DNA of 64,000 nucleotides from positions 76,228 to 140,227 of the forward strand of contig JAEUHX010000058.1 of assembly GCA_016792805.1 (NCBI GenBank). Reading direction: 5' to 3'. The notes below the pieces were generated by a model, which did not search any database, had not been told where the DNA came from, and saw only the letters and a program-made list of their open reading frames with translations. Below are positions 5,806 through 37,269 of this stretch, piece by piece. Position numbers and translations under genes: made by a program. This stretch comes from Planctomycetota bacterium (GTDB taxonomy: Bacteria; Planctomycetota; UBA1135; JACQFD01). Position 1 is the stretch's first letter; every line of letters begins with the position of its first letter.

Positions 5806-7770
5806 CTAAGACGCGCTCTCCCCTGCGCGTTGTGCCACCGCATTTGCACCGAACTGCATGTCGTGGAGCCGTCGGTAGACGCCCCCCGTCGCAAGAAGCT
5901 GGTCGTGCGTCCCCATCTCGACGATGCGCCCTCGGTCGACGACCAGCAGCCGGCTTGCGTTGCGCACCGTGGAGAGGCGATGAGCGACGACGAGCGACGT
6001 GCGCCCCACCATGAGCTTCTCCAACGCGTCGCGCACCGCGGCCTCGCTCTCGCTGTCGAGGGAACTCGTCGCTTCGTCGAGGAGGAGGATCGGCGGATTC
6101 TTGAGCAGCGCGCGAGCGATCGTCAGCCGCTGGCGCTGGCCGCCCGAGAGGCGCGCACCGCGGTCGCCCACCTCCGTGTGGATTCCCGCCGGGAGCGACT
6201 CGACAAATTCCAACAAATTCGCCGCGCCGAGAGCAGCCCGAACCTCCGCGTCCGTAGCATTCGGTTTCCCGTACGCGACGTTCTCACGTATGGACGCATG
6301 GAACAAAAAGGGCTGCTGATCGACGAGCGCCCACGCGGCGAACCACGCGTCGGGGGCGAGTTCGCGCACGTCGATTCCGTTCACAAGAATTGCGCCCGAC
6401 TGCGGGTCGTAGAAGCGCGCGACGAGATCGAGAAGTGTAGATTTTCCGGCGCCCGACGGCCCAACGACGGCGATCGTCTCCCCCGCTTCAATGCGGAACG
6501 AAACGTGGTCAAGTACCGGCTCCTGGTCGTAGGCGAAACTCACATCGCGCAGCTCGACCTCGCGGATCGGTCCATCGAGGCGGCGCCGCCCGGAAGGCTG
6601 CGTCGCCGCAGCCGGACGAATATCAAAAATCTCAAAGAGACGCTCGGCGGCGCCAAGCGATTCTTGAACGGTTTGGTAGCCTTTCGAAATGCGCCGGATG
6701 TGCTGATACATCGTGGCGAATCCGACGAACCAGACGCTCATGCTGCCGATGCCGGCGAGCACGCCCCACTGCAGGTGCGCCAGGCCAATTCCGCAGATGA
6801 GGAGCGCAAATCCTGCATTCGTAAGAAGGTGCGTGGAGCTCTCCGTGAGGGCCTTGGCGCGGACGACCGTCATCGACCTGTCGATCCACCGCTCATTGGT
6901 CTCGCGGAACTCTTGCAACTCCCGCTCTTCCATGCGGAAGGCCTTCACCACGCGAATTCCGGCGAACATCTGGGACATCGCTTCGGTCGACTCACCGAGG
7001 GCAGCGAGCGACTTGCGGGCGCCCTTTCGCACGCGCCGCCCGAAGATGGCGAGCGGAATCCCAACGATCGGCACAAGCACCAGGACGAGAATCGTAAGCT
7101 TCGCGTCGCCCACCAGCGCGAGGACGACGTTCCCGAGAAGCTGGGCCGGCTCGAGAATGAGATCGTCGAAGAAGAGTGCCAGCGCCGTCAGCACAATGCC
7201 GACATCGGTCGTGGCGCGAGATAACAGATCGCCTTTTCGCGCCGATGTGTGGTATTGCATTCCGAGGCGCAGGATGTGGGATGCCAGATCCTGGCGCAGG
7301 TCGGCGAGGATCCGCAGCGACAAGCTTCGCGACGCCGCCTGGAATGCATACTGGCAGAGCGCGCCGAGAAGCGTGAAGACGACGACGCCGCCTGCGATCG
7401 CCACGAGCAGCGCTGTCTTCTCCCCTTTCTCCATGTCCGTGGGCGCCGCGCTGACACTTCGCAACAAATCGGCGATGGCCGGCAGCCACGCGCGCAGCGC
7501 CTCGTCGAGGCGGGCCAGCACGGCGGATTTCGCAGTCTCGGCTCCGGCTCCTCCGGCTTTCAGCTCGAGGATGGAGTCAATAAAGGGCGCCAGAAAGAAA
7601 AAGGGCGCCTTCACCAGGACTCCCGTGAGGAGTCCCAAGAAAAGCACGAGGGTGGCGCGCGCCCGGTAGCGCCAGACGTAAGGTCCGAAGCGCTGGAGCG
7701 CGCGCCCGAGAGAAACTTTCGGAGGAGAGCGACGCTCTGCGTGTCCGGTCTGGCCGGGCACGGCCTCCAA
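5806..7770 (-). CDS. ABC transporter, fused permease/ATPase (MsbA/lipid exporter-like)
   Basis: 654 aa. N-terminal six-TM-type domain. Walker A GPSGAGKSTL, signature LSGGQRQRLTIARALL, Walker B ILLLDEATSSLD. Confidence 0.9.
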   Translation of the reverse strand: MEAVPGQTGHAERRSPPKVSLGRALQRFGPYVWRYRARATLVLFLGLLTGVLVKAPFFFLAPFIDSILELKAGGAGAETAKSAVLARLDEALRAWLPAIADLLRSVSAAPTDMEKGEKTALLVAIAGGVVVFTLLGALCQYAFQAASRSLSLRILADLRQDLASHILRLGMQYHTSARKGDLLSRATTDVGIVLTALALFFDDLILEPAQLLGNVVLALVGDAKLTILVLVLVPIVGIPLAIFGRRVRKGARKSLAALGESTEAMSQMFAGIRVVKAFRMEERELQEFRETNERWIDRSMTVVRAKALTESSTHLLTNAGFALLICGIGLAHLQWGVLAGIGSMSVWFVGFATMYQHIRRISKGYQTVQESLGAAERLFEIFDIRPAAATQPSGRRRLDGPIREVELRDVSFAYDQEPVLDHVSFRIEAGETIAVVGPSGAGKSTLLDLVARFYDPQSGAILVNGIDVRELAPDAWFAAWALVDQQPFLFHASIRENVAYGKPNATDAEVRAALGAANLLEFVESLPAGIHTEVGDRGARLSGGQRQRLTIARALLKNPPILLLDEATSSLDSESEAAVRDALEKLMVGRTSLVVAHRLSTVRNASRLLVVDRGRIVEMGTHDQLLATGGVYRRLHDMQFGANAVAQRAGESAS

Positions 7771-7771
7771 G

Positions 7772-9703
7772 CTAATTCACCACCTCGATCTTGGCCTTCG
7801 CGATCGCGTCGTTCACGAATGCGATGAACTGATGATTGATCATGTCGTCGACAGCAAGTTCGCGCGAGGCGGTTTCCTTCAGCTCGAAGACCTTGCCGCC
7901 CGGAGTGCGATTCTGCACTCGTGCAATGTAATATCCTTCGGCGCCACGGAACGGACCGACGACCTCACCAATCGGGGCGCGGAAGAAAAGCTCCTCGCCG
8001 ATCGAGTAGCCCTGGAGCAGCGTCACGAGCTCGCTCTCGTGGAGCTTCTCAACCATCGGATTGCGCTGCTGCGGGCCGAATCGGCCGCGATTCACTTTCG
8101 CCATCGTGCCCGGCTGATTGGGATTCATGCCGTCGCGGTAGTCGGAATCGCGCTCCTGGATCTCCAGGAACGTAAACCCCTTGGCCGCATCGATGGCTGC
8201 CGCCTCGGCCTCTGCGGCCGTCTTGCCTGCGTCGATCGCCGCTTTCTTGGCCTTCTTCGCGAGCTCGGCGCCTTTCTTGAGGTCGGCGATGGCCTGCTCG
8301 GCGCGCTTGCGCGCCGCGTCGAAGCCGTCCTCGTGGGAGCCTTTTGTAGTATCGCTATGATAGGCGTACCAGATCACTTCGGCTTCCGCGGAGCCATTTG
8401 TAAAGAACAGCTTGTTGCGGTCGACGTGGCCCGCGAGCATGTCCTCCGTGCGGTCCTTTGCGGTCGCGCGACGGAACGACTCAATCATCTGGAAATGGAG
8501 CCGGTAGACCTGCATCGAGGGGAACTTGCGGAAATGCACAAGTCCCTTCAGGTCGAACGGCGGCGTCGGATATTTCTTCTTTTCGTTCTCGAACGCCTCT
8601 TTGAAAACGTCGCTTCCGTCGACGAGCCAATACACCGGGCGAGCGGGATCGGGCGCGTCCTCGCCCTTGGCGCGGCGCGCGGCGGCATCAGCTTTCTCGG
8701 CAGCCCAATCGGACTCCTCTTTGGCAATGATCGCCTGGTGCAGCGCCTCGCGAGCCGTCATGAATTCGATGGCCTTGAGCGCTTCCATGTAGCCGCCAAG
8801 TCCCATGCCCTTGTCCTGGAGATCTCGCGACTTGAAGGGCATTTCGCCGACGACGAGCCCCACATCCTTCGGAATGCCGTCGAGCGCGTCCTGCACTGGC
8901 ACCGTCTCAAGGAGTTTTGTGATGAGCTGGCGCTTCACCAGGAACGTCGCGACGCCGACGTTCTGGTCGGTATTATTGGGATCCCGCGACTTCTTGATGG
9001 CTTCCTTGATGCGCGTAATCGTGTCGGCGCGCATCTTGGCGTCGGTTCCCTGGTAGAGGCTCGCAGCAGCTTCCTCGGACTGGGCCGGCCATTCGGTCTC
9101 GTCGGCCGGGAACCAGACCGAATCAAAGACGGCCTGCGATCGGAACGACCAGGCGAAGCTCGCCGGTGTCTGCTTTTGCCCCGAGAGAAACTGCTCCCAG
9201 GTCATGTCCGGTTTCATTTCCTCGACTCTTCGCTGGAGCAGCGAGAACTGCTCCTGGAACTTCGCGTCATCGATCCGGTACTTGGAGACATCCTTCCCGG
9301 CCTTGGCCTGGCGCTCGATCTCGCGCTCCGTGGCGACGTAGAGCCGAAGCCCCTGGATCACCCCCTCACCCGAGAAGTAGAGCGCCGCGCGCAGGAGTGC
9401 ATCGGGCTCGACGGCGACGCCATTCACCTTCATCGTCGGCCAGGCCCCCGCCCGATCGGGAAGGGCGTTGAGCCCCTGGCGAACGCTCGCCGCCTGACGC
9501 GCCAGCTCCGTCAGATCGGGCGCCGGCTTCTCGTCGATCTTCTTCGCGTCGGCCTCGGCGGGGTTGGCCTTCCCGGCCTCGGCAGCGCCTTGGAATGCCG
9601 CTCCATATGCGGAGGGCAGGCGCAGGCTCGTCGGGGCGAGCCCGGCGATCAGGGACGCCAGAGGAATCCAAAGAAGAAGCGTACGGATGCGAGGCATGGT
9701 CAT
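7772..9703 (-). CDS. Secreted SurA/PpiD-like chaperone with a degenerate parvulin-type PPIase C-terminus
   Basis: 643 aa with a signal peptide (MTMPRIRTLLLWIPLASLIAGLAP). The C-terminus, ELFFRAPIGEVVGPFRGAEGYYIARVQNRTP, resembles the end of a parvulin domain. There is a 1-nt gap to the ABC gene downstream. Confidence 0.65.
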   Translation of the reverse strand: MTMPRIRTLLLWIPLASLIAGLAPTSLRLPSAYGAAFQGAAEAGKANPAEADAKKIDEKPAPDLTELARQAASVRQGLNALPDRAGAWPTMKVNGVAVEPDALLRAALYFSGEGVIQGLRLYVATEREIERQAKAGKDVSKYRIDDAKFQEQFSLLQRRVEEMKPDMTWEQFLSGQKQTPASFAWSFRSQAVFDSVWFPADETEWPAQSEEAAASLYQGTDAKMRADTITRIKEAIKKSRDPNNTDQNVGVATFLVKRQLITKLLETVPVQDALDGIPKDVGLVVGEMPFKSRDLQDKGMGLGGYMEALKAIEFMTAREALHQAIIAKEESDWAAEKADAAARRAKGEDAPDPARPVYWLVDGSDVFKEAFENEKKKYPTPPFDLKGLVHFRKFPSMQVYRLHFQMIESFRRATAKDRTEDMLAGHVDRNKLFFTNGSAEAEVIWYAYHSDTTKGSHEDGFDAARKRAEQAIADLKKGAELAKKAKKAAIDAGKTAAEAEAAAIDAAKGFTFLEIQERDSDYRDGMNPNQPGTMAKVNRGRFGPQQRNPMVEKLHESELVTLLQGYSIGEELFFRAPIGEVVGPFRGAEGYYIARVQNRTPGGKVFELKETASRELAVDDMINHQFIAFVNDAIAKAKIEVVN

Positions 9704-27370: not shown

Positions 27371-27446
27371 GCGGGCGTAACTCAGTTGGTAGAGTGTCAG
27401 CTTCCCAAGCTGAATGTCGAGAGTTCGAACCTCTTCGCCCGCTCCA
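27371..27446 (+). tRNA. tRNA-Gly (anticodon CCC), with encoded CCA
   Basis: Manual cloverleaf fold. Acceptor stem gcgggcg/cgcccgc, D stem actc/gagt, anticodon stem tcagc/gctga with loop ttCCCaa, and T arm gagag-ttcgaac-ctctt. Confidence 0.95.
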
Positions 27447-28094: not shown

Positions 28095-28817
28095 ATGAGC
28101 ATTTTGATCGTCCACAGCGATTCCAAGTATGCCGTTAGCGCCTCCTTCCGTCGGCCGCGCGAGGGCCCAGAGCTGGACCTCTTGGAGTCGTTCCTTCGGG
28201 CGATGCCGCTAGAGATCCCAGATGGTTGCCGCGCGACCGTATTTCGGGAGCCGCGCCTAGAGTCGGGCTTCCCGGACTTGGTGATCGTCGTGTGGCACCT
28301 CGCGACAGCCAAAGCGTGGAGCGCTCAGAGGAAAGCAGTTGAGCCCCGCGACTTGCGGTTGATGCACTACCTGCATCAGGTGCGCTGGGCGACGACAGCG
28401 GACCTGGAAGAACGCTTCAGCCGGCGCGCAGCAGCCGGCGGTTTGGAGCGCTTGCAGCAAGCGAACATGATCCGACGCGCCGGAGATTCGTGGACACCGC
28501 GCGCGCTGAGGGCTTCGTTCGCTGCGACCAAGATCATCGCCATCGAGGCAAAGGTAGATCGATGGTCCGACGCGATCGCACAGGCGGTTCTCAACACCTG
28601 GTTCGCGTCGAAGTCCTACGTGCTCGTTCCGAATGCACCGTCGTCCGAGCTTCTCCATGCGGCGAAGCGCTTTGGTCTCGGTGTTTGCTCGCTCAACAAG
28701 GAGTCAGTCCGAGAGGTCGCGACCCCTAATGGCGGTCTCCCGCGATCGTATGCCTCCTGGCTATTGAACGAGTGGGCTTGGCAAGCATGGAGAGGTGCCA
28801 AGGACTCGCCTGAATGA
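28095..28817 (+). CDS. PD-(D/E)xK nuclease-fold protein with an inserted winged-helix domain
   Basis: 240 aa. GFPDLVIVVW (Asp at 28275-28277) and IIAIEAKVDRW (E-x-K at 28545-28553). Between them lies a wHTH-like segment, DLRLMHYLHQVRWATTADLEERFSRRAAAGGLERLQQANMIRR. Confidence 0.7.
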   Translation: MSILIVHSDSKYAVSASFRRPREGPELDLLESFLRAMPLEIPDGCRATVFREPRLESGFPDLVIVVWHLATAKAWSAQRKAVEPRDLRLMHYLHQVRWATTADLEERFSRRAAAGGLERLQQANMIRRAGDSWTPRALRASFAATKIIAIEAKVDRWSDAIAQAVLNTWFASKSYVLVPNAPSSELLHAAKRFGLGVCSLNKESVREVATPNGGLPRSYASWLLNEWAWQAWRGAKDSPE

Positions 28818-29677
28818 ACGGAGCTTCCCAAGTCACTTCGGCATGGCTCGCAATCAACTTCCCTGACCTCCAGGGCATTCAACCGCTATCGAGAGGAGGT
28901 CAAAAGGAGGTGTTCTCCGCGAAGCACAATGGGAACGGCGAAGTTGTGCTGAAGCTGATGCACCCGAACTCCGATGTCGAGCGAACGAAGCGCGAACTCC
29001 TGGCCGTCGCGAAAGTCAGGTCCCCGCGTGTGCCCGTGATCTTTGACCAAGGCAGCATCACCACGCCCGTCGGCGATTGCTTCTGGTTTCGCGAACAACG
29101 CGTCGCCGGTCAGTCGGTTAGAGCACGACTTGCGGGTGGTGCGATGTCCACCGCGGAAGTGCTCCGCCTTGGCCTTCACATCTCGGAAGCACTGCTCGCC
29201 GCAGAAAGCGTCGGGATCGTCCATAGGGACGTAAAACCCGACAACATCATTCTCGACCCGCACGGAGCATTCTGGCTCATCGACTTTGGACTCGCGCGGC
29301 ACCTGGGCCTCGAGTCACTGACCGCGACCGCCAACGCCTTCGGTCATGTAACGTGGGGATACGCACCGTTGGAGCAGTGCAGGAACCTCAAGCAGGAGAT
29401 CGATTCAAGGGCTGACCTGTTCGCGCTCGGAGTGACGCTGTACGAGTGCGCCACAGGTGCCAATCCGTTCCGAGTCGGCGCTGGAAACGTCCTCGACATT
29501 CTGAAACGGGTTGAGCAGGGACAACTCGCGAGACTGAACCTGAGCTTCCCTTCGTCGAGCACCTTCGCGGATCTTGTGTCGGCTCTGACTCAGAAGCAGA
29601 GGGTGCATCGCCCTCAATCGGTCAAAGATGCGTACGACTGGATCAAGGACATCTGCGCAGCGGAGGGAGTGCAATGA
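28814..29677 (+). CDS. Stand-alone Hanks-type Ser/Thr protein kinase (catalytic domain only)
   Basis: VVLKLM (catalytic Lys), HRDVKPDNIIL, DFG (LIDFGLAR), YAPLEQ, DLFALGVTLYE. The start overlaps the upstream stop codon (ATGA). Confidence 0.9.
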   Translation: MNGASQVTSAWLAINFPDLQGIQPLSRGGQKEVFSAKHNGNGEVVLKLMHPNSDVERTKRELLAVAKVRSPRVPVIFDQGSITTPVGDCFWFREQRVAGQSVRARLAGGAMSTAEVLRLGLHISEALLAAESVGIVHRDVKPDNIILDPHGAFWLIDFGLARHLGLESLTATANAFGHVTWGYAPLEQCRNLKQEIDSRADLFALGVTLYECATGANPFRVGAGNVLDILKRVEQGQLARLNLSFPSSSTFADLVSALTQKQRVHRPQSVKDAYDWIKDICAAEGVQ

Positions 29678-29678
29678 A

Positions 29679-30965
29679 ATGGAACTGTATCTGCACGTCG
29701 GGATGTTCACGGTGCGCCGCCGTGCGCGTCTACTGGCGCGAACGAGGTCTCGACTAATGGAGCTGTACCTTCAGTTCGGATACGGAATGATGGAGCACTG
29801 CCGACACCTTCTCGAATCATGGGACGGGGGAACGGCCATCCTGAGTCCGCGCGATCTAAGCGACGGCCAGTTGCGCAAGATTTCGTCCACGATTCACGAC
29901 ATCGAAGGAGGTCGAGTGCTCCTAGATCCGCAGTTCTATCTCCCGCACGCGGATCATGAGCGCCTATGCTCTCACGACTATTGGCCCGCCGACTTTGAGA
30001 GTGGCACGTTCTTTCAGGGCGCCGCGCTTCGGACTTTGCTCACCAAGCTCAAGGTGCTGAATGACGCGCTCGACGCCGACGCGATCATTCTGCCGGGGCT
30101 GCTCGCGAGCGAGATCGGCGACGCTTGGCTCGAGACGCAGCGCGCAATGATCGAGGCATCGCGTGAGACGTTCAAAGGGCAATCTGTCTTGGCGACGATC
30201 GCTCTCAGTGCGGACGCCACGAAGAATCTCGAGCAGGTTGCGACTCTCTTGGAAGCTGCACCAGGTTGGAAGGCCGACGGGTACTACGTCGTGTGCGAGC
30301 ATCCGAACGGCGACTACCTCGTGAAGGACCCCAATTGGATTGCTAATGTACTGGACCTGGCAGCGGGACTTCGGCTCGCAGGAGCGCAAGTCGTTCTTGG
30401 ATACTGCAACCATCAGATGCTTGCAGCGTCCGTCTCCAAGGTAAATGCGATTTGCTCCGGGACCTGGATGAACGTCAGATCGTTTCCTCCGGACAAGTTC
30501 CGCAGCGCATACGATGAGGAGATCAAACAGCGTGCGACTTGGTACTACTGCCCGCAAGCCCTCTCGGAATACAAAGTGCCATTCCTAGATATCGCGCAAC
30601 GGCAAGGTGTCTTACAACGGATGGCACCGCCCGAGCATCTGGATGGTGGCTACGCCTCTCACCTGTTTAGCGGCCCTCAACCCACCACAGTTGGCTTCAC
30701 CGAGCAGGCCGCATTTCGACACTACTTGCACTGTCTCCGTGCGCAGGCCCAAGCCGCTAGCGCTGCGACATACGATGAAACTCGGGCGAATCACGAAGCC
30801 CTGCTCGATGGAGCAGAGACGCTCCTCAGCACTTTGGTTACCGCCGGAGTGAGAGGTCAGCAGCGCGACTTCACAGAGAGCCTCGACGTGAATCGGGCGG
30901 CGCTCGCCGTTCTAGATTCGACGCGCGGACCCATTATGCGGCGGCGGTGGGGCGGAATTGAATAA
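29679..30965 (+). CDS. Uncharacterised protein of about 400-430 aa, with an alternating beta/alpha pattern (possibly TIM-barrel-like) and a helical C-terminus
   Basis: The first ATG lies 1 nt after the kinase stop codon. A second in-frame ATG at 29757 repeats the same MELYL start. I recognise no family motif. Hydrophobic strands recur: LYLQFGYGM, GTAILSPRDL, RVLLDPQFY, AIILPGLL, VLATIAL, GYYVVCEH, VVLGYCNHQ. Confidence 0.7.
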   Translation: MELYLHVGMFTVRRRARLLARTRSRLMELYLQFGYGMMEHCRHLLESWDGGTAILSPRDLSDGQLRKISSTIHDIEGGRVLLDPQFYLPHADHERLCSHDYWPADFESGTFFQGAALRTLLTKLKVLNDALDADAIILPGLLASEIGDAWLETQRAMIEASRETFKGQSVLATIALSADATKNLEQVATLLEAAPGWKADGYYVVCEHPNGDYLVKDPNWIANVLDLAAGLRLAGAQVVLGYCNHQMLAASVSKVNAICSGTWMNVRSFPPDKFRSAYDEEIKQRATWYYCPQALSEYKVPFLDIAQRQGVLQRMAPPEHLDGGYASHLFSGPQPTTVGFTEQAAFRHYLHCLRAQAQAASAATYDETRANHEALLDGAETLLSTLVTAGVRGQQRDFTESLDVNRAALAVLDSTRGPIMRRRWGGIE

Positions 30966-31541: not shown

Positions 31542-31925
31542 TTACGCAACTTCTTTGCAGGTCACGGGCCCGACGGGACAGTCCGTTGGCCGGTTCCGGT
31601 TCCAGGTCGCGATAAGGGTCGCGCGATTCTGTTTATGCCATTCGCGAATCGTCTTAGTCCACTTGCGTAGTGCCCCGCCGACGAGAGGATTGCCGCTGCA
31701 GATCTCAAAGGAAGCGTCCTCCCCTTGGTACTCAACGTGGAAGTGTGGAGGACCGTGCTCCCTCGAGCGAACAGTGATGCGGAGGCCGTCGACCTGATCG
31801 ACAAGCTCTTTTTCGGTAAGCGTCGACTCGCGCTCCTCGATAGGACCGCTACGGAATTCGAGGTCGAGCGATTGAAGCGCGACACCTGCCACTTGAAAAA
31901 CGAGGTCAGTATTGTGGTCACACAT
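31542..31925 (-). CDS. DUF4160 domain protein
   Basis: LRITVRSREHGPPHFHVEYQGEDASFEI...REWHKQNRATLIATW matches the DUF4160 signature (H.PPHFHV). Confidence 0.75.
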   Translation of the reverse strand: MCDHNTDLVFQVAGVALQSLDLEFRSGPIEERESTLTEKELVDQVDGLRITVRSREHGPPHFHVEYQGEDASFEICSGNPLVGGALRKWTKTIREWHKQNRATLIATWNRNRPTDCPVGPVTCKEVA

Positions 31926-31966: not shown

Positions 31967-32551
31967 CTAATTCGACGACGCCGGAGCGTGCCGCCACAGA
32001 ATACGAGCAGCGGCACGGCGCCGGGCGCGAACCTGATCATCCGGTGATGTCGCGTTTGCGCAGGCATCGAGTTCGGACTCAAACTCCTGCTCCAATAGCC
32101 GGGCCGCGCGGACAACAGTTCTTACACTCGGGTGGACTCCCAGGCTACGCGTGAGTAAGTCGTGAGCAAATTGGGCGAACGGCCAGATTCGAACATTGAC
32201 ACTTAGCACGTGGGCCGCAAGGCTCTCTGCGGACCCGTCACTATCCGACACAGAATCGCGCTCGAATTCTTGGCGTAGTGCAGCCACGTCATCGACAAAC
32301 TCGCCAAACCTCCGCGGGGCGTCGTCATCAGCAGGCCCCGTCAATAAGGGTGACTCAGCTTTCAGTCGGCGCAGGTAATGAACGAACGCGTTCAGAATTA
32401 TCTCTCGCGCGCGCTCGGCGTCGATCTGACTAGATGGAATCGAGAGAGCGTTGAGAAGTCGGGTCAGTACGTGGTTTGGATTTGTATGTAGCGGCATGGC
32501 ATTTCCTTGCATTGTGGATATAGCGTATCTGCTTATTTGCTTCCCAGTCAC
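31967..32551 (-). CDS. Hypothetical all-helical protein (start uncertain: 32551, 32512 or 32497)
   Basis: 194-aa ORF between the NTPase and DUF4160 genes on the same strand. Composition is helix-rich and there is an acidic linker. I recognise no motif. Confidence 0.55.
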   Translation of the reverse strand: MTGKQISRYAISTMQGNAMPLHTNPNHVLTRLLNALSIPSSQIDAERAREIILNAFVHYLRRLKAESPLLTGPADDDAPRRFGEFVDDVAALRQEFERDSVSDSDGSAESLAAHVLSVNVRIWPFAQFAHDLLTRSLGVHPSVRTVVRAARLLEQEFESELDACANATSPDDQVRARRRAAARILWRHAPASSN

Positions 32552-32623: not shown

Positions 32624-34903
32624 CTAGCGAAGGCGCGCTCCAACCTCTCGGATGGCGTCTTCGACTTCCCGAATGACCTCCATTACGAACTCATTTCGAC
32701 CTGGCGATGGAGTAACATTCGGGATCGGGGCGGCTGGATCGTAGATATCGATGCCAATAATGTGCGCACGTATGTAGCTCGAGCCTTTGCCTCGCTGGTC
32801 GTACGCTGTTGTCCACTTGCCAGACTTCTCTTCCCAAACTCTTCGGCGAGCAAGTCGGAGCATTCTCTGACTGATATTCTCGGCCAAAGCATTGTACATA
32901 TTCTGCTTCTCGTCGTCAGTGGGACTTCCGCCTTCCCATTGCCGTGGACTCTGCAGAAACACAAATATCTTGTCAAGGAGGTCTTTGCGCAGGCTCGCAA
33001 CCGGCCTCAACGAATCGTACTCGTCCGCGACCCCTGTCGCGAGGCGCCGAGCAAGCGCCTTGATTCTCGTCCAGTGCTCTTTGAGGATGCCAGCTTTTTG
33101 TTGCAATCCAAGCAGCGGAAACCAGGAGTCGTGGAAGGCCTCCGCCGCTGCCTTCACGGCAAGTACAAGATTGATGCGGTCATAGACTGGTCTGGCGTGT
33201 CCAGGCTCTGTCGGTTCACTGACCGCCTCAATCGAAGCGATTAGTTTCTCGATTTGCTTAATCGTGCGCACACCGTCTTTTTCGTTGGAGGAAAGTGGCC
33301 TGTTAATCCCACCCAGGAATACACGTGCCGATTCAATTCGCTGACGCAGAGCTCGTTCTGCAAACGGTCCGAGCTCCTCACCAATGGCAGCAAGGACATT
33401 TTCGGCAGATGCGAGGACGTGCTCAGTCTTGGCCGTGGCGGTAGGAAGATTGTCTCCCATGACTTCGTCAAAGTGAGTAAATGCGACGACGAGCTTTCGT
33501 GCGTTTCCCGAGGAGACTATTTCGCGCATTGCGGCAATGGGTGCCGCCTGCATCGGCTGCTTCGCGCTATCTACAAGCACGATCGCGTCAGTCTCATTGA
33601 TCCGCCTCATCAGCGACGTTGAAAGTGCCGTGGATGGGTTAGGTACGTGACCTAATCCTTCTCCGTCGAGCAAGACAAACCGAGGCTGCGCTCCATGGGC
33701 CCATTTCGGCGAGAACGGACCGGCAACGCGAACTCCGCTCACCAGTGGCGTCATCAAGTAGCCGAAAAGCGGAGCATAGTTGCTCGAAAAGCAGGCGATG
33801 GCTTGCATGAACTCCTCGCGTTCGTGAGTCGGCCATCGTGAATGCCAGGCGATTGGCCAGCCTTGTCTGCTTCGCGTTACTTTTCCCTCTGGAAGCACGT
33901 CAAATCGCTTTTCAATTTCGTCTATTAGTTCATCCGCTAGTGAGTGTGCAACCTCATTGTCTCTGAGGCGAGAGTCAAGTTCCTCTTCGAACATCTCGTC
34001 GATGATACGTTCATCACCTCCCTGCGCATCCAATTCAGCTCGAGCATTCGAGCCCAGCTCCTTGGCAAGTGCGCGGATTTCCTGAACTGCGCGATCGAGC
34101 AACGAGTTGGTAGCATCGAGATTGATAGAAACTTGAGCTCTTCGGAGGTAGTGATCAGTTGGACCGGCCGAGGACGTCGCGCCAACACATTCGTCATCCT
34201 CGAAATCATTACCCGCCTTGGTAGAGCCGTTCCCGAGAACATAGCTGAAGCGAAATCGCTGATTCACATGGTTGAGGAGCCTACGCAGAATCTCCGCATC
34301 GCGCGCGCCCCGGTAAGCCGTGAGCACCGCGGCCGAGATGCACTCGTTCATGTATTCACGAACCTCATCGATCGAAACAAATGTTACGACGGCGCGCCAT
34401 TCATCCTCGTCCAGGATGATTTCAGTATCGTGTACTGTCGTTTTCGCAGTCGATGTAGAGGGAAACCGTTCTGTTTCAGGGTCTGTTCCTATGAGTTGAC
34501 GGACTAGGGTCGTTTTTCCTGCGCCGGTTGTCCCAATGAGTAGGACTCGGCGATAACCAGTGGCTTCACCCGGTAGTGGTATTAGGAGCTCTCGGAGTGC
34601 CGCATGATCGTCTCCGTCTGGCTCGACGCCGTCGTAGAAGATCTCAACAACACGTGAGTCGAATCTGTGGGATGCGTCAGCGCGCGCTGCTGCGCTGTGG
34701 AAGGACTTATCCTCGAGGATCTCGTTGAGCTGTCCGACTAGGCGTTCAGCCTCTCCACGATCTCGAGTCCCGAGTCCGCGTCTTACTCGGAGCCCGAGCT
34801 TGCCGGTGGCGCGGTCATGCCTCAGGGGATGTCTAAAGATGATTGACCAGCCAGCGCGTCCTTGCGATTGGCTGAGACTTGCTTCGTGTGTCGTTCGTGC
34901 CAT
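32624..34903 (-). CDS. 759-aa P-loop NTPase with an integrase Arm-like N-terminal domain and a long helical insertion
   Basis: Walker A LLIGTTGAGKTTL at 34511-34534. A distal RFVLLDGEGLGH (Walker B or G3-like) is preceded by PLVSGV at ABC-signature-like spacing. VVAFTHFDEV is G4-like. The N-terminus GWSIIFRHPLRHDRATGKLGLRVRRGLGTRDRGEAERLVGQLNEIL resembles arm-type DNA-binding domains. Confidence 0.8.
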   Translation of the reverse strand: MARTTHEASLSQSQGRAGWSIIFRHPLRHDRATGKLGLRVRRGLGTRDRGEAERLVGQLNEILEDKSFHSAAARADASHRFDSRVVEIFYDGVEPDGDDHAALRELLIPLPGEATGYRRVLLIGTTGAGKTTLVRQLIGTDPETERFPSTSTAKTTVHDTEIILDEDEWRAVVTFVSIDEVREYMNECISAAVLTAYRGARDAEILRRLLNHVNQRFRFSYVLGNGSTKAGNDFEDDECVGATSSAGPTDHYLRRAQVSINLDATNSLLDRAVQEIRALAKELGSNARAELDAQGGDERIIDEMFEEELDSRLRDNEVAHSLADELIDEIEKRFDVLPEGKVTRSRQGWPIAWHSRWPTHEREEFMQAIACFSSNYAPLFGYLMTPLVSGVRVAGPFSPKWAHGAQPRFVLLDGEGLGHVPNPSTALSTSLMRRINETDAIVLVDSAKQPMQAAPIAAMREIVSSGNARKLVVAFTHFDEVMGDNLPTATAKTEHVLASAENVLAAIGEELGPFAERALRQRIESARVFLGGINRPLSSNEKDGVRTIKQIEKLIASIEAVSEPTEPGHARPVYDRINLVLAVKAAAEAFHDSWFPLLGLQQKAGILKEHWTRIKALARRLATGVADEYDSLRPVASLRKDLLDKIFVFLQSPRQWEGGSPTDDEKQNMYNALAENISQRMLRLARRRVWEEKSGKWTTAYDQRGKGSSYIRAHIIGIDIYDPAAPIPNVTPSPGRNEFVMEVIREVEDAIREVGARLR

Positions 34904-35130: not shown

Positions 35131-35158
35131 TTGACAAATTCCGCCAAGTATTTATGCT
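35131..35158 (+). promoter_or_regulatory. Sigma70-like promoter for parDE
   Basis: TTGACA (35131-35136), a 16-nt spacer, then TATGCT (35153-35158). This would give a near-leaderless parD transcript (ATG at 35166). Confidence 0.35.
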
Positions 35159-35165
35159 TTTGCCT

Positions 35166-35447
35166 ATGGCAACCGACAAGAACATCACGACGCTCAACAT
35201 CTCCCTGCCTGAATCCATGAAGTCCTTCGTCGAACACGAGGTCTCTGAGGGAGGCTACACCTCGGCCAGCGAGTATGTGCGCGAGCTCGTTCGTCGTGCC
35301 AAGCGAGAGCGCGAAGAGCAGGAGAACTTGGAGAAGCTGATTCTCGAGGGCCTCGGTTCTGGGCCCGCGACCGAAGTCACCCCGGAATATTGGAAGCAGC
35401 TCAAGGGCAAGCTCGCTGCGCGACACGCGAAAAGGCAGGGCCGATGA
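35166..35447 (+). CDS. parD: ParD-family (RHH) type II antitoxin
   Basis: MATDKNITTLNISLPESMKSFVEHEVSEGGYTSASEYVRELVRRAK is typical of ParD/CC2985-type antitoxins. Confidence 0.85.
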   Translation: MATDKNITTLNISLPESMKSFVEHEVSEGGYTSASEYVRELVRRAKREREEQENLEKLILEGLGSGPATEVTPEYWKQLKGKLAARHAKRQGR

Positions 35448-35761
35448 GGTTGCGCTCTGTTATTCGGCCGCGCGCGCAAGCCGATATCGAGGAAGCGTTC
35501 GATTACTATGTTCGAGAGGCGGGAATCGAGATAGCCGACCGATTCGTAGACTGCGTCGCTAAGACGCTTGAATTGATCTCGTCCAACCCGTCGATCGGTT
35601 CGCCTCGCAGATGGATGAACCCGAGTCTTTCAAATCTCCGGTCTTGGCATGTGGGCGAGTTCGACAAGTTTCGCGTGTATTACGTGATCCAACCCGAGAC
35701 GATCGAAGTTGTCAGAGTTCTTCACGGCGCACGTGAAGTGCGGGAGTTGCTCAGCGAATAG
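35444..35761 (+). CDS. parE: ParE/RelE-family type II toxin
   Basis: The ATG overlaps the parD stop codon (ATGA). MRLRSVIRPRAQADIEEAFDYY...FRVYYVIQPETIEVVRVLHGARE. Confidence 0.85.
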   Translation: MRLRSVIRPRAQADIEEAFDYYVREAGIEIADRFVDCVAKTLELISSNPSIGSPRRWMNPSLSNLRSWHVGEFDKFRVYYVIQPETIEVVRVLHGAREVRELLSE

Positions 35762-35928: not shown

Positions 35929-36912
35929 TCACCTCACCTTTGCCATCCACGCCCGCAACGCCGCGAGGTACTCGATGGGCCGGTCATAATTGGCAACGTG
36001 GGCCGCGCCGGCGATCACCACACATTCCGAGTTCGGCGTCAGCGCCGCATAGCCGCGCGTCGACTCCGGCGTCGCTTCATCGTGTTCACCACAGATGTAG
36101 AGTACAGGCACGCCGAGGTTGGCGAGCCGCGGCGTGACGTCGACAGACTTGAGCGACCCCGTGACCGTAAACTCCGTCGGCCCATTCATAGTACTGTACA
36201 CTTCCTTGCCGAGGCCAGCGAAGGCGCGGTTGAGTGCATCTGGCCACGGCTCGCTCCGACAAATGTGACGCTTATAGAAAGCCTCGGTCGCGTCGAGGTA
36301 CGCCTTCGAGTCGGTCTGCCCCGTACGCTCGCCTTCGAGAATCGCGCTCGCCACAGGCTCGGGCAGGGCCGCGATCAGCCGGCGCGAATCGTCGTGCCAT
36401 CGCGGGATCGAGAGCGCAGGACCGGCAAGGATGACGCCGCGAATGCCCGACGAAGGCGCGCCGGCCATTCCCGTGATGGAGTCGACGGCCAGGATCGTCC
36501 CCCACGAATGGCCACAGAGAATGACCTCGTCGAGCCCCAGCGCGCGACGAACCATGTCGACCTCGCGGGCGAAGCGTTCGCGCGTCCAGAGCTTCGGATC
36601 CTCGGGGCGGTCCGACTTGCCGCAGCCAAGCTGGTCGTAAAAAACCACAGGGCGCTCGTCGCCTAGGAGCGCGAGATTCTCGAGGTCGTCGTGCGGGACG
36701 CCTGGGCCACCGTGGAGGACCAAGAGCGGCGTGCGGGTGCCGGTGCCGTGAATCCAGTACGCGACTTTTCCTCCTTCAACTGTGACATATCCTGTCGCGG
36801 GCTTCGCGAGAACAGCGCGCGCGGACGGGCTCACCGTCGACGCACAGCCAACGACGGCGGCGGCCAAAGATATCGATGCGAAGGCGTTACAGATCGAGCG
36901 CTTGCGGGTCAT
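35929..36912 (-). CDS. Alpha/beta hydrolase lipoprotein, proline iminopeptidase (S33)-like
   Basis: Internal ATG at 36912 (MTRKRSICNAFASISLAAAVVGC, with a lipobox). LVLHGGPGVPH, and the nucleophile elbow GHSWGT. Confidence 0.85.
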   Translation of the reverse strand: MTRKRSICNAFASISLAAAVVGCASTVSPSARAVLAKPATGYVTVEGGKVAYWIHGTGTRTPLLVLHGGPGVPHDDLENLALLGDERPVVFYDQLGCGKSDRPEDPKLWTRERFAREVDMVRRALGLDEVILCGHSWGTILAVDSITGMAGAPSSGIRGVILAGPALSIPRWHDDSRRLIAALPEPVASAILEGERTGQTDSKAYLDATEAFYKRHICRSEPWPDALNRAFAGLGKEVYSTMNGPTEFTVTGSLKSVDVTPRLANLGVPVLYICGEHDEATPESTRGYAALTPNSECVVIAGAAHVANYDRPIEYLAALRAWMAKVR

Positions 36913-37269
36913 GGGCGAGCTCTTGGGGGGACGCGATCGAGCCAGAGGATACCCGCCCTGGCCCAGAGAGTCTGCTTCGTTGGTGTCCTCGACTCGAGAT
37001 GGACGGCATGCACACACAAATCCGATCCAATCGCAAGCATCGGGATCTGAACACTCCGCCATCTCAAATCCCATCGCCATGCATCCGTAGCGGCTCGCTC
37101 GGTTTCAACGTGACGAAGCCTCATGAAGCGATCCGTCCGCGCGACGTGCCCCAGGCCGAGCCCCCACGCGCCGCAGAGGAAGCATGTAATTCGCCGACAT
37201 GTCGCCGCATGGAGCAGGAGTCCAGGCAGCGGCGGATGCCCGCTGCCTCAATCCCCTCGGAGGACCCTC

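Follow-up and report, generated by a model that had tools for sequence, protein, structure and literature searches.

Hanks-type serine/threonine kinases have precedents in prokaryotic defence, among them Stk2 and PD-T4-6 (PMC9519451), and in PglW of BREX type 2 and in some DndF proteins a restriction-endonuclease-fold (NERD) domain, a serine/threonine kinase and winged helices are united in a single polypeptide (PMC12839542). In a stretch of 64,000 nucleotides from the metagenome-assembled genome of a Planctomycetota bacterium (assembly GCA_016792805.1, contig JAEUHX010000058.1, positions 76,228 to 140,227 of the forward strand; the whole stretch is called the window here), we analysed three adjacent genes, referred to as the triad, that encode a predicted nuclease of the PD-(D/E)xK fold (gene 1), a stand-alone Hanks-type kinase (gene 2) and a predicted TIM-barrel enzyme (gene 3). 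The triad is inherited as one unit whose conserved residue sets are under strong purifying selection, and it is most probably a self-contained, horizontally mobile conflict module directed against phages or plasmids, a functional claim drawn from context to which we give a probability of roughly 0.6. Its parts lie as follows in the window, where ORF stands for open reading frame and pI for isoelectric point:

28095..28817, plus strand: gene 1, an ORF of 240 aa, pI 9.7
28814..29677, plus strand: gene 2, the kinase, an ORF of 287 aa
29679..29756, plus strand: leader before the gene 3 core, 26 codons, in frame
29757..30965, plus strand: gene 3 core, 402 aa, pI 5.4

The nearest named system is PD-T4-6, which came out of a screen of the E. 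coli pangenome and is represented in PADLOC by the models PDLC04039-04064. The triad kinase matches its PADLOC profiles at positions 16-271 of 292 (PDLC04042, E 1.3e-41, with more than 20 further PD-T4-6 models), and both kinases have little beyond the catalytic domain. However, PD-T4-6 is a single kinase gene in PADLOC, and presumably is filed in the same way in DefenseFinder, whereas the triad kinase is flanked by genes 1 and 3 in every locus examined, and neither of these matches any PADLOC model; in a PADLOC run the kinase was the only member of the triad with a match. Since the PD-T4-6 models are broad kinase-domain profiles, the match shows homology of the kinases and not identity of the systems. 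Stk2, which we compared through the shared Pkinase domain only, is likewise a Hanks-type kinase in phage defence; in staphylococci it is said to act by abortive infection, being switched on by the infection and then phosphorylating cellular proteins, but it is a single gene that has neither a nuclease nor a TIM-barrel partner. MADS can be compared through its kinase, for the triad kinase matches mad6 (PADLOC E 5.7e-34) and antiphage_MADS6 (NCBIfam E 7.5e-28), but MADS comprises eight genes including a methyltransferase, and no other mad gene is present in the triad.

The closest likeness in domain vocabulary is with PglW and the kinase-bearing DndF proteins, which hold what genes 1 and 2 hold together, and the triad kinase has a weak match to the BREX_PglW kinase domain (E 5e-15). 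The construction is nevertheless different. PglW joins a NERD nuclease, sensor domains, a pseudokinase and a kinase in a single chain of ~1400-1600 aa and acts together with PglX, PglZ, BrxC and other partners; PglX, PglZ and BrxC genes are not conserved in the flanks of the triad. In the triad, by contrast, two small separate proteins supply the nuclease fold, which encloses the winged helix, and the kinase; a NERD match, a pseudokinase, a methyltransferase and PglZ are absent, and the third partner is a TIM barrel. Against the NCBIfam equivalogs for PknB, MAD6 and PglW the triad kinase stays well under the cut-offs (for instance 97 bits against 460 for MAD6, NF047741, and 54 bits against 990 for PglW, NF033442). 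Gene 3, finally, has in common with the tRNA-guanine transglycosylases (TGT) and DpdA a TIM barrel followed by a C-terminal extension, at template-modelling (TM) scores of 0.43-0.48, but it is acidic and shows neither a profile relationship to them nor their zinc cysteine cluster. The original prediction, made from the sequence without database searches, had held that no described system has this composition. This stands in so far as none of the libraries PADLOC 2023, Pfam 2025 and NCBIfam 2026 covers the triad, its gene 1 or its gene 3, and the literature collection that was searched, with the vocabulary of such systems and with accession numbers, yielded no publication on any of them; it has to be qualified in that PD-T4-6 models match the kinase and that PglW and DndF share the domains. 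The triad would thus add two undescribed protein families to the kinase-containing defence and conflict modules.

The three genes share one strand and are tightly coupled, genes 1 and 2 overlapping by 4 nt (ATGA), as had been noticed from the ORF map, and their association is kept far beyond this genome. In tblastn comparisons, gene 1, gene 2 and gene 3 occur in the same order and on one strand in 72 of the 72 related loci that had enough upstream DNA to be judged, which is far beyond chance. The carriers belong to more than 12 phyla, including Acidobacteriota, Planctomycetota, Desulfobacterota, Myxococcota, Gemmatimonadota, Bacteroidota and Chloroflexota, with Clostridia, Coriobacteriia, Verrucomicrobiota, Nitrospira, Armatimonadota and Proteobacteria among the further lineages. 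The order is also kept on two Bacillus plasmids, where gene 3 is ~30% identical to that of the window, and on a plasmid of the archaeon Natribaculum breve (CP095393.1), where the three proteins are 230, 285 and 400 aa long and gene 3 is ~25% identical. No kinase lacking genes 1 and 3 was met in any locus examined, and clustering of ~1,460 flanking ORFs gave no fourth conserved gene other than one element common to eight Flavobacteriaceae. The identities of the three genes to their window counterparts co-vary over the loci (Spearman 0.89-0.91), with means of 41% for gene 1, 49% for gene 2 and 55% for gene 3, so that gene 1 is the fastest-diverging member of the triad and gene 3 the most conserved.

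The distribution is extremely patchy: about 100 of 185,579 species-representative genomes (0.05%) carry the triad. Spread over more than 12 phyla in this manner, while gene 3 remains 45-70% identical to the window protein across phyla, the triad shows the pattern of horizontal transfer. Several copies have decayed. In one locus (L004) an insertion sequence (IS) of the DDE_3 type lies between the kinase and gene 3 (6710-7873); in another (L006) ~1.7 kb of extra DNA with a 402-aa ORF separates gene 1 from a truncated kinase (7750-9421); a third (L076, 10001-11200) has a frameshift in gene 3, and a fourth (L089, 8478-9712) has gene 1 and the kinase in fragments. Such copies fit an accessory module that the host can do without and that is at times costly.

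For gene 1 we built an AlphaFold2 model from a 51-sequence alignment (pLDDT, the predicted local distance difference test, 93.9; predicted TM-score, pTM, 0.91). The model runs α1(25-36)-β1(45-51)-β2(62-68)-[insert 69-141]-β3(144-152)-α2(157-167)-β4(173-178), which meets the core α-β-β-β-α-β topology of the PD-(D/E)xK fold, with a winged helix-turn-helix (approximately residues 69-141) placed between core strands β2 and β3. The signature of that fold is an Asp at the start of β2 and (D/E)xK in β3, often with a Glu in α1 and a Gln in α2, and the candidate catalytic residues of gene 1 sit accordingly: E26 in α1, D61 before β2 (the PD of GFPDLV), E151-x-K153 in β3 (the ExK of IAIEAKV) and Q163 in α2. 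All five are at least 97% conserved among 63 distinct homologs and are invariant in a wide alignment of bacteria plus archaea, which takes in Planctomycetota, Ralstonia, Flavobacteriaceae, Clostridia, Chloroflexota, a Bacillus plasmid and a haloarchaeal plasmid. The model and the conservation thus agree with the original prediction of a PD/ExK core (GFPDLVIV, IAIEAKV) split by a winged helix. Farther on, the C-terminal motif P216-x-S218-x-x-x-W222-x-x-N225 is conserved, and the protein is basic (median pI 9.7 across loci).

We predict from motif invariance and model topology that gene 1 has the PD-(D/E)xK fold and is a nuclease, and it is on these two lines that the case rests. Gene 1, with diverse alignment members included and E values up to 5, has zero matches in Pfam, NCBIfam, PADLOC and PHROGs, and sequence and profile searches of the PDB returned noise only (mitoribosomal bS21m and Lrp/AsnC, E above 0.01). 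A relationship to Mrr-like type IV enzymes was considered and rejected, the hhalign probability against E. coli Mrr being 0.2%. Foldseek comparison of the model with the PDB gave as its best match 3dnx, the uncharacterised protein SPO1766 (E 0.012, TM 0.28/0.42; weak), followed at lower rank by Cdn1, Can2 and Cas4-family (Cas4-ACE1) nucleases (E 0.06-0.4); MarR-type winged helices match the insert. The public annotation of this family is problematic in two respects. RefSeq names the homologs 'AsnC family protein', 'MarR family transcriptional regulator' or 'hypothetical', and in GenBank the gene of this genome (JNJ88_14010; the window also carries the locus tag JNJ88_14020) is a protein of 179 aa starting from V63, although the homologs are conserved from about residue 5, so that the deposited protein is without the catalytic E26 and D61.

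Gene 2 is a stand-alone Hanks-type serine/threonine kinase consisting of the catalytic domain only. It matches Pfam Pkinase (PF00069) over profile positions 7-253 of 263 (E 5e-23, 82.2 bits against a cut-off of 31.7) and the PHROG serine-threonine kinase (E 1.9e-34). The expected residues are all in place (G28/G29, K47, E61, H137-R138-D139, K141, N144, D157-F158-G159, T170 and the APE-like E187), and across 68 homologs the kinase motifs, including the Gly-rich loop, the activation-loop T170 and E187, show conservation of at least 97%. The Pkinase match and this conservation bear out the earlier description of a minimal kinase with intact K, HRD and DFG motifs that has no sensor domain.

Gene 3 had been described from its sequence as a protein of about 400 aa with alternating strands and helices and no family that could be named, and this can now be refined. 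Its AlphaFold2 model (pLDDT 88.1, pTM 0.90) is a (β/α)8 barrel with strands at 2-7, 25-29, 52-56, 114-117, 144-150, 175-180, 211-214 and 231-234, followed by a C-terminal three-helix bundle (approximately 316-400). Each of the eight strands has conserved residues at its C-terminal end, namely Q6, P31(R32 D33), D57-P58-Q59, P113, T147, Y177(E181), G215-Y216..Q220 and S234-G235..N239-x-R241-x-F243; E271 is conserved as well. In the widest alignment Q6, P31, D57, Y61, P113, G175, Y177, G235, R241, F243 and E271 are invariant, and P58, Q59, G215, Q220 and N239 nearly so. Conservation at the strand ends of the modelled barrel is characteristic of TIM barrels with a functional active site, which leads us to predict an enzyme. 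Behind strands 7 and 8, Gly and Ser residues stand where TIM barrels ordinarily have their phosphate-binding site. The loop 238-249 (MNVRSFPPDKF) is invariant and is also the sole low-confidence segment of the model, which suggests a mobile loop that contacts a substrate or a partner. The protein is acidic in the family as a whole, with a median pI of 5.8 across loci, which argues for a small molecule or a protein as its substrate over DNA.

No family in the libraries searched accommodates gene 3. It has zero family matches in Pfam, NCBIfam, PADLOC, PHROGs and PDB sequences; none of 34 diverse members matched any Pfam family, TGT included, at E values up to 5; and sequence and profile searches of the PDB gave noise only (antibody chains). 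By structure, Foldseek searches of the PDB and BFVD returned generic TIM barrels only, at E ~1e-4, including nitronate monooxygenases, pyruvate kinases and glycosidases, with 62 TIM-barrel matches in the PDB at E up to 1e-3. The top TM-scores belong to tRNA-guanine transglycosylases, both in the PDB (6rkt and 2pwu, TM 0.44-0.48) and among viral models, where a putative queuine tRNA-ribosyltransferase reaches TM 0.43/0.56. Membership of the TGT family was nonetheless rejected: besides the absence of Pfam TGT from the 34 members, hhalign against E. coli Tgt gave 0.3%, and the family-wide conserved residues of gene 3 include no cysteine cluster matching the TGT zinc site, a subdomain of the form CxCxxC...H. 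The relatives of gene 3 number more than 1,376 in a collection clustered at 90%, or 871 representatives at 50% clustering, and all are single-domain proteins of ~400 aa; the relatives of gene 1 number 405. No gene 3 homologs were found in phage genomes. We therefore regard gene 3 as a new, confidently modelled family of TIM-barrel protein and a predicted enzyme.

The junction between the kinase and gene 3 has a peculiarity of its own. The kinase stop codon (TGA, 29675-29677) is followed one base on by an in-frame ATG at 29679, and the gene 3 open frame at full length covers 29628-30965 on the plus strand. The suggestion that the third gene may start 1 nt past the kinase stop was thus right in that the codon exists, but the homologs and GenBank use the ATG at 29757, a start that is common to all homologs. 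The leader between the two ATG codons reads MELYLHVGMFT... and then passes into an Arg-rich tail, and at its beginning the leader mirrors the strand with which gene 3 opens (MELYLQFGYGMM). Over the ~11 initial codons (M-[DE]-L-[YF]-[LV]-H-x-G-M-F) it is conserved, with mostly synonymous differences. The Arg-rich tail overlaps an AGGAGG-like Shine-Dalgarno sequence ahead of the core ATG, and a GAGG at 29744-29747 stands 9 nt 5' of that codon. About half of the related loci (L005-L084) have the leader in frame; two stop codons interrupt it in L008, and many others are without it, with a gap of ~0-20 nt. RNAalifold found no conserved pairs in the leader. It could be the start of a second isoform, a coupling upstream ORF or the relic of a partial duplication.

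The surroundings of the related loci are what points to conflict. In the annotated neighbourhoods, mobile-element and defence genes predominate: a phage-type integrase and IS21 lie near the triad of Desulfosarcina widdelii, recombinases near that of a Bacillus plasmid, and transposases flank other copies. In Ralstonia solanacearum MAFF211479 (L085, AP024099.1, 8419-13433) the triad is ~400 bp from the 3' end of glmS, the classical insertion hotspot of Tn7-type elements, and IS3 copies and a 716-aa SEC-C/NERD-like protein are encoded upstream of it; another Ralstonia triad has AAA_15/21 and HNH genes as neighbours. A mobilisable element of Flavobacteriaceae carries the triad together with a relaxase, an integrase, a PRTRC ubiquitin-like system and AbiEi/AbiEii. 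One island holds SNF2/NOV_C, AAA_21 and DUF1156 genes, with an IS between kinase and gene 3, and another holds two ThsB-TIR (Thoeris) genes, a TGT-like gene, QueC, an MmeI fragment (MmeI_N) and a type I S subunit. Conjugation genes and a FitA-PIN toxin-antitoxin pair accompany the triad at one locus, and a Fic/MazE pair at another. Among 134 immediate-neighbour ORFs, N6_Mtase, AbiE, Eco57I, DDE transposases, AriA-like ATPases and mad2/mad3 recur, and there are also XhoI and HKD+Snf2 matches. On the Natribaculum plasmid (L092) a TBP-like gene and the gene of a 1,339-aa type IIG-like methyltransferase/endonuclease lie ahead of the triad, and directly behind it, on its strand, comes the gene of a calcineurin-like metallophosphoesterase (8201-8890; Metallophos_2, E 3.7e-27). 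In this archaeal lineage the phosphoesterase could be a phosphatase counterpart of the kinase; it is a single example.

Since gene 3 matches no housekeeping family (Pfam and NCBIfam being empty and the contexts being mobile elements and defence islands), since the triad is conserved as a unit on chromosomes and on the Bacillus and archaeal plasmids alike, and since the PD-ExK residues are conserved, a conflict or defence role is well supported by context. The original prediction, which saw in the island triad an anti-phage or other conflict system, has in this respect held up well. Several points weigh against such a role. The evidence for a nuclease fold in gene 1 is statistically weak, as the best Foldseek E value of 0.012 shows, and the fold search with gene 3 cannot discriminate between a hydrolase, a transferase and a lyase. 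A candidate phosphatase partner for the kinase is present at the archaeal locus only, none having been found in the bacterial flanks examined. Several neighbours of the triad are ordinary housekeeping genes, and proximity to defence genes was judged from ~14 annotated contexts and from aggregate counts, without a genome-wide background.

If the triad is a conflict module, its working can be pictured along the following lines. Gene 1 would be the part that contacts DNA, where the inserted winged helix would position the PD-(D/E)xK site, and it would be able to cut. The kinase, which has no sensor of its own, would respond to the state of its partners, or to a phage trigger, by phosphorylation. 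Autophosphorylation probably falls on T170, the conserved residue of its activation loop, and gene 1 or gene 3 may be substrates too; in gene 1 the candidate target is the exposed, invariant P-x-S218, in gene 3 the loop N239-V-R-S242-F, which is likewise invariant and is flexible. Gene 3 would be a genuine enzyme whose substrate is not DNA but a small molecule, one that probably bears phosphate. As an effector it could convert or use up a nucleotide or a metabolite, or else it could produce or remove a signal by which kinase and nuclease are gated. The expected outcome would be that the invading DNA is degraded or that the growth of the infected cell is arrested. The earlier idea of a nuclease licensed by phosphorylation agrees with the data, as do several other wirings, and any single wiring deserves much less confidence than the figure given for the conflict role as such. 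Only tentatively, then, do we propose that the triad is an undescribed immune system of bacteria and archaea in which a TIM barrel acting on a phosphorylated small molecule is wired, via serine/threonine phosphorylation, to a DNA-bound gene 1.

The same contexts also suit a module that benefits its carrier element and not the host, stabilising it in the manner of a toxin-antitoxin (addiction) system or serving exclusion or counter-defence between mobile genetic elements, with the nuclease or the kinase being toxic and restrained by a partner. The triad does sit on plasmids and on conjugative or mobilisable elements, beside IS elements and integrases, classical toxin-antitoxin pairs often adjoin it, and the decayed copies described above (L089, L004, L006, L076) would suit such a life. 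Many defence systems have exactly this context, however, and context alone therefore cannot separate the two readings; the strong purifying selection on all three proteins, in bacteria and archaea, and a build of three enzymes that is atypical for toxin-antitoxin pairs speak against this reading, which we consider unlikely.

Less likely still is an arrangement resembling restriction-modification, in which gene 3 would mark or attack DNA, by a base exchange like that of TGT or DpdA or as a glycosylase, gene 1 would be the nuclease whose winged helix reads the mark, and the kinase would balance the two. Dpd systems modify DNA through a TGT homolog (PMC10164549, PMC12839542), and it is tRNA-guanine transglycosylases that head the TM-scores of gene 3 in the PDB and in viral models; gene 3 is moreover the most conserved member of the triad, as is typical for a modification enzyme. 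Yet its acidity would be unusual for a DNA-binding enzyme, the hhalign result and the missing cysteine cluster set it apart from Tgt, and oxidases dependent on flavin mononucleotide, pyruvate kinases and glycosidases reach an equal Foldseek E (~1e-4), so that the resemblance to TGT is not specific. Least likely of all, to our mind quite improbable, is a mobile operon with no part in conflict, where gene 1 would be a regulator of the AsnC or MarR type, modulated by the kinase, and gene 3 a catabolic or biosynthetic enzyme for a niche substrate. This would fit the RefSeq names of the gene 1 homologs, the weak similarity of the inserted domain to Lrp/AsnC and MarR, and the metabolic genes among some neighbours, but a pure regulator would not need the invariance of E26, D61, E151, K153 and Q163, conservation never extends to a transporter or another gene of a pathway, the flanks differ from lineage to lineage, and the distribution is extremely patchy. 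An anti-phage or anti-plasmid conflict module thus remains our preferred reading.

In the window itself, the triad belongs to an island of low G+C content (0.54-0.61 across 27-36 kb, against 0.63-0.68 for most of the 20 kb on each side). The sole tRNA gene of the window, tRNA-Gly(CCC) at 27371-27446, immediately precedes the start of the island and is also the only RNA family that Rfam found in the window. The island had been called both low in G+C and tRNA-flanked; the former is correct, but with one tRNA, not two, it is tRNA-adjacent. At its border only short chance repeats, and no att-like direct repeats of the tRNA 3' end, were found, and no integrase was found in the island. Between 27.3 and 31.7 kb one terminator-like hairpin was detected (31608-31623), fewer than in shuffled sequences; a scan of the same region gave no sigma-70-like promoters, and as it does not cover the planctomycete promoter type this is uninformative. 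Besides the triad the island carries a P-loop NTPase gene and a ParDE module, as originally noticed and as Pfam matches agree:

31542-31925, minus strand: DUF4160 protein, weakly similar to the DhiT toxin (below threshold)
31967-32551, minus strand: 194-aa protein with no family matches
32624-34903, minus strand: P-loop NTPase of 759 aa, Walker A around residues 118-140, with marginal GTPase, dynamin, LeoA and mad8 matches (mad8 in PADLOC, E 3.9e-05)
35154-35761, plus strand: ParDE module closing the low-G+C island on its distal side, with a 97-aa ParD-like antitoxin and a ParE toxin (Pfam E 2.7e-17)

The low G+C content, the adjacent tRNA, ParDE and the DUF4160 gene likewise count in favour of a conflict role for the triad. 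The three minus-strand genes may form a second uncharacterised conflict module on the island. Past ParDE, the G+C content is back to ~0.65 at an ORF of the size of an α/β-hydrolase (35929-37080, minus strand).

Candidates for defence systems of this type turn up frequently by now, and this one also bears on how such loci are read by annotation tools: PADLOC-type programs would probably report just a 'PD-T4-6' kinase here, and the naming of gene 1 as AsnC or MarR by RefSeq and its short N-terminus in the GenBank record are problems that the present comparison exposes. The triad occurs in culturable hosts, among them Ralstonia solanacearum, R. pseudosolanacearum, Maribacter, Flagellimonas, Bacillus mycoides (on plasmids), Desulfosarcina widdelii and Thioalkalivibrio denitrificans, so that the cassette is directly testable. 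If it is a defence system, it would be a compact (~2.9 kb), clonable module of three enzymes with two protein families that the databases do not describe, and gene 3 would bring a new TIM-barrel enzyme chemistry into immunity. If the tentative wiring proposed above is true, a kinase cascade in the style of eukaryotes would link the sensing of DNA to a metabolic effector. To our knowledge, few multi-protein immune systems with internal serine/threonine phosphorylation have been recognised (Stk2, PglW and the KKP module), and a defensive triad would be a further case of such phosphorylation as an internal signal of multi-protein immunity in prokaryotes.

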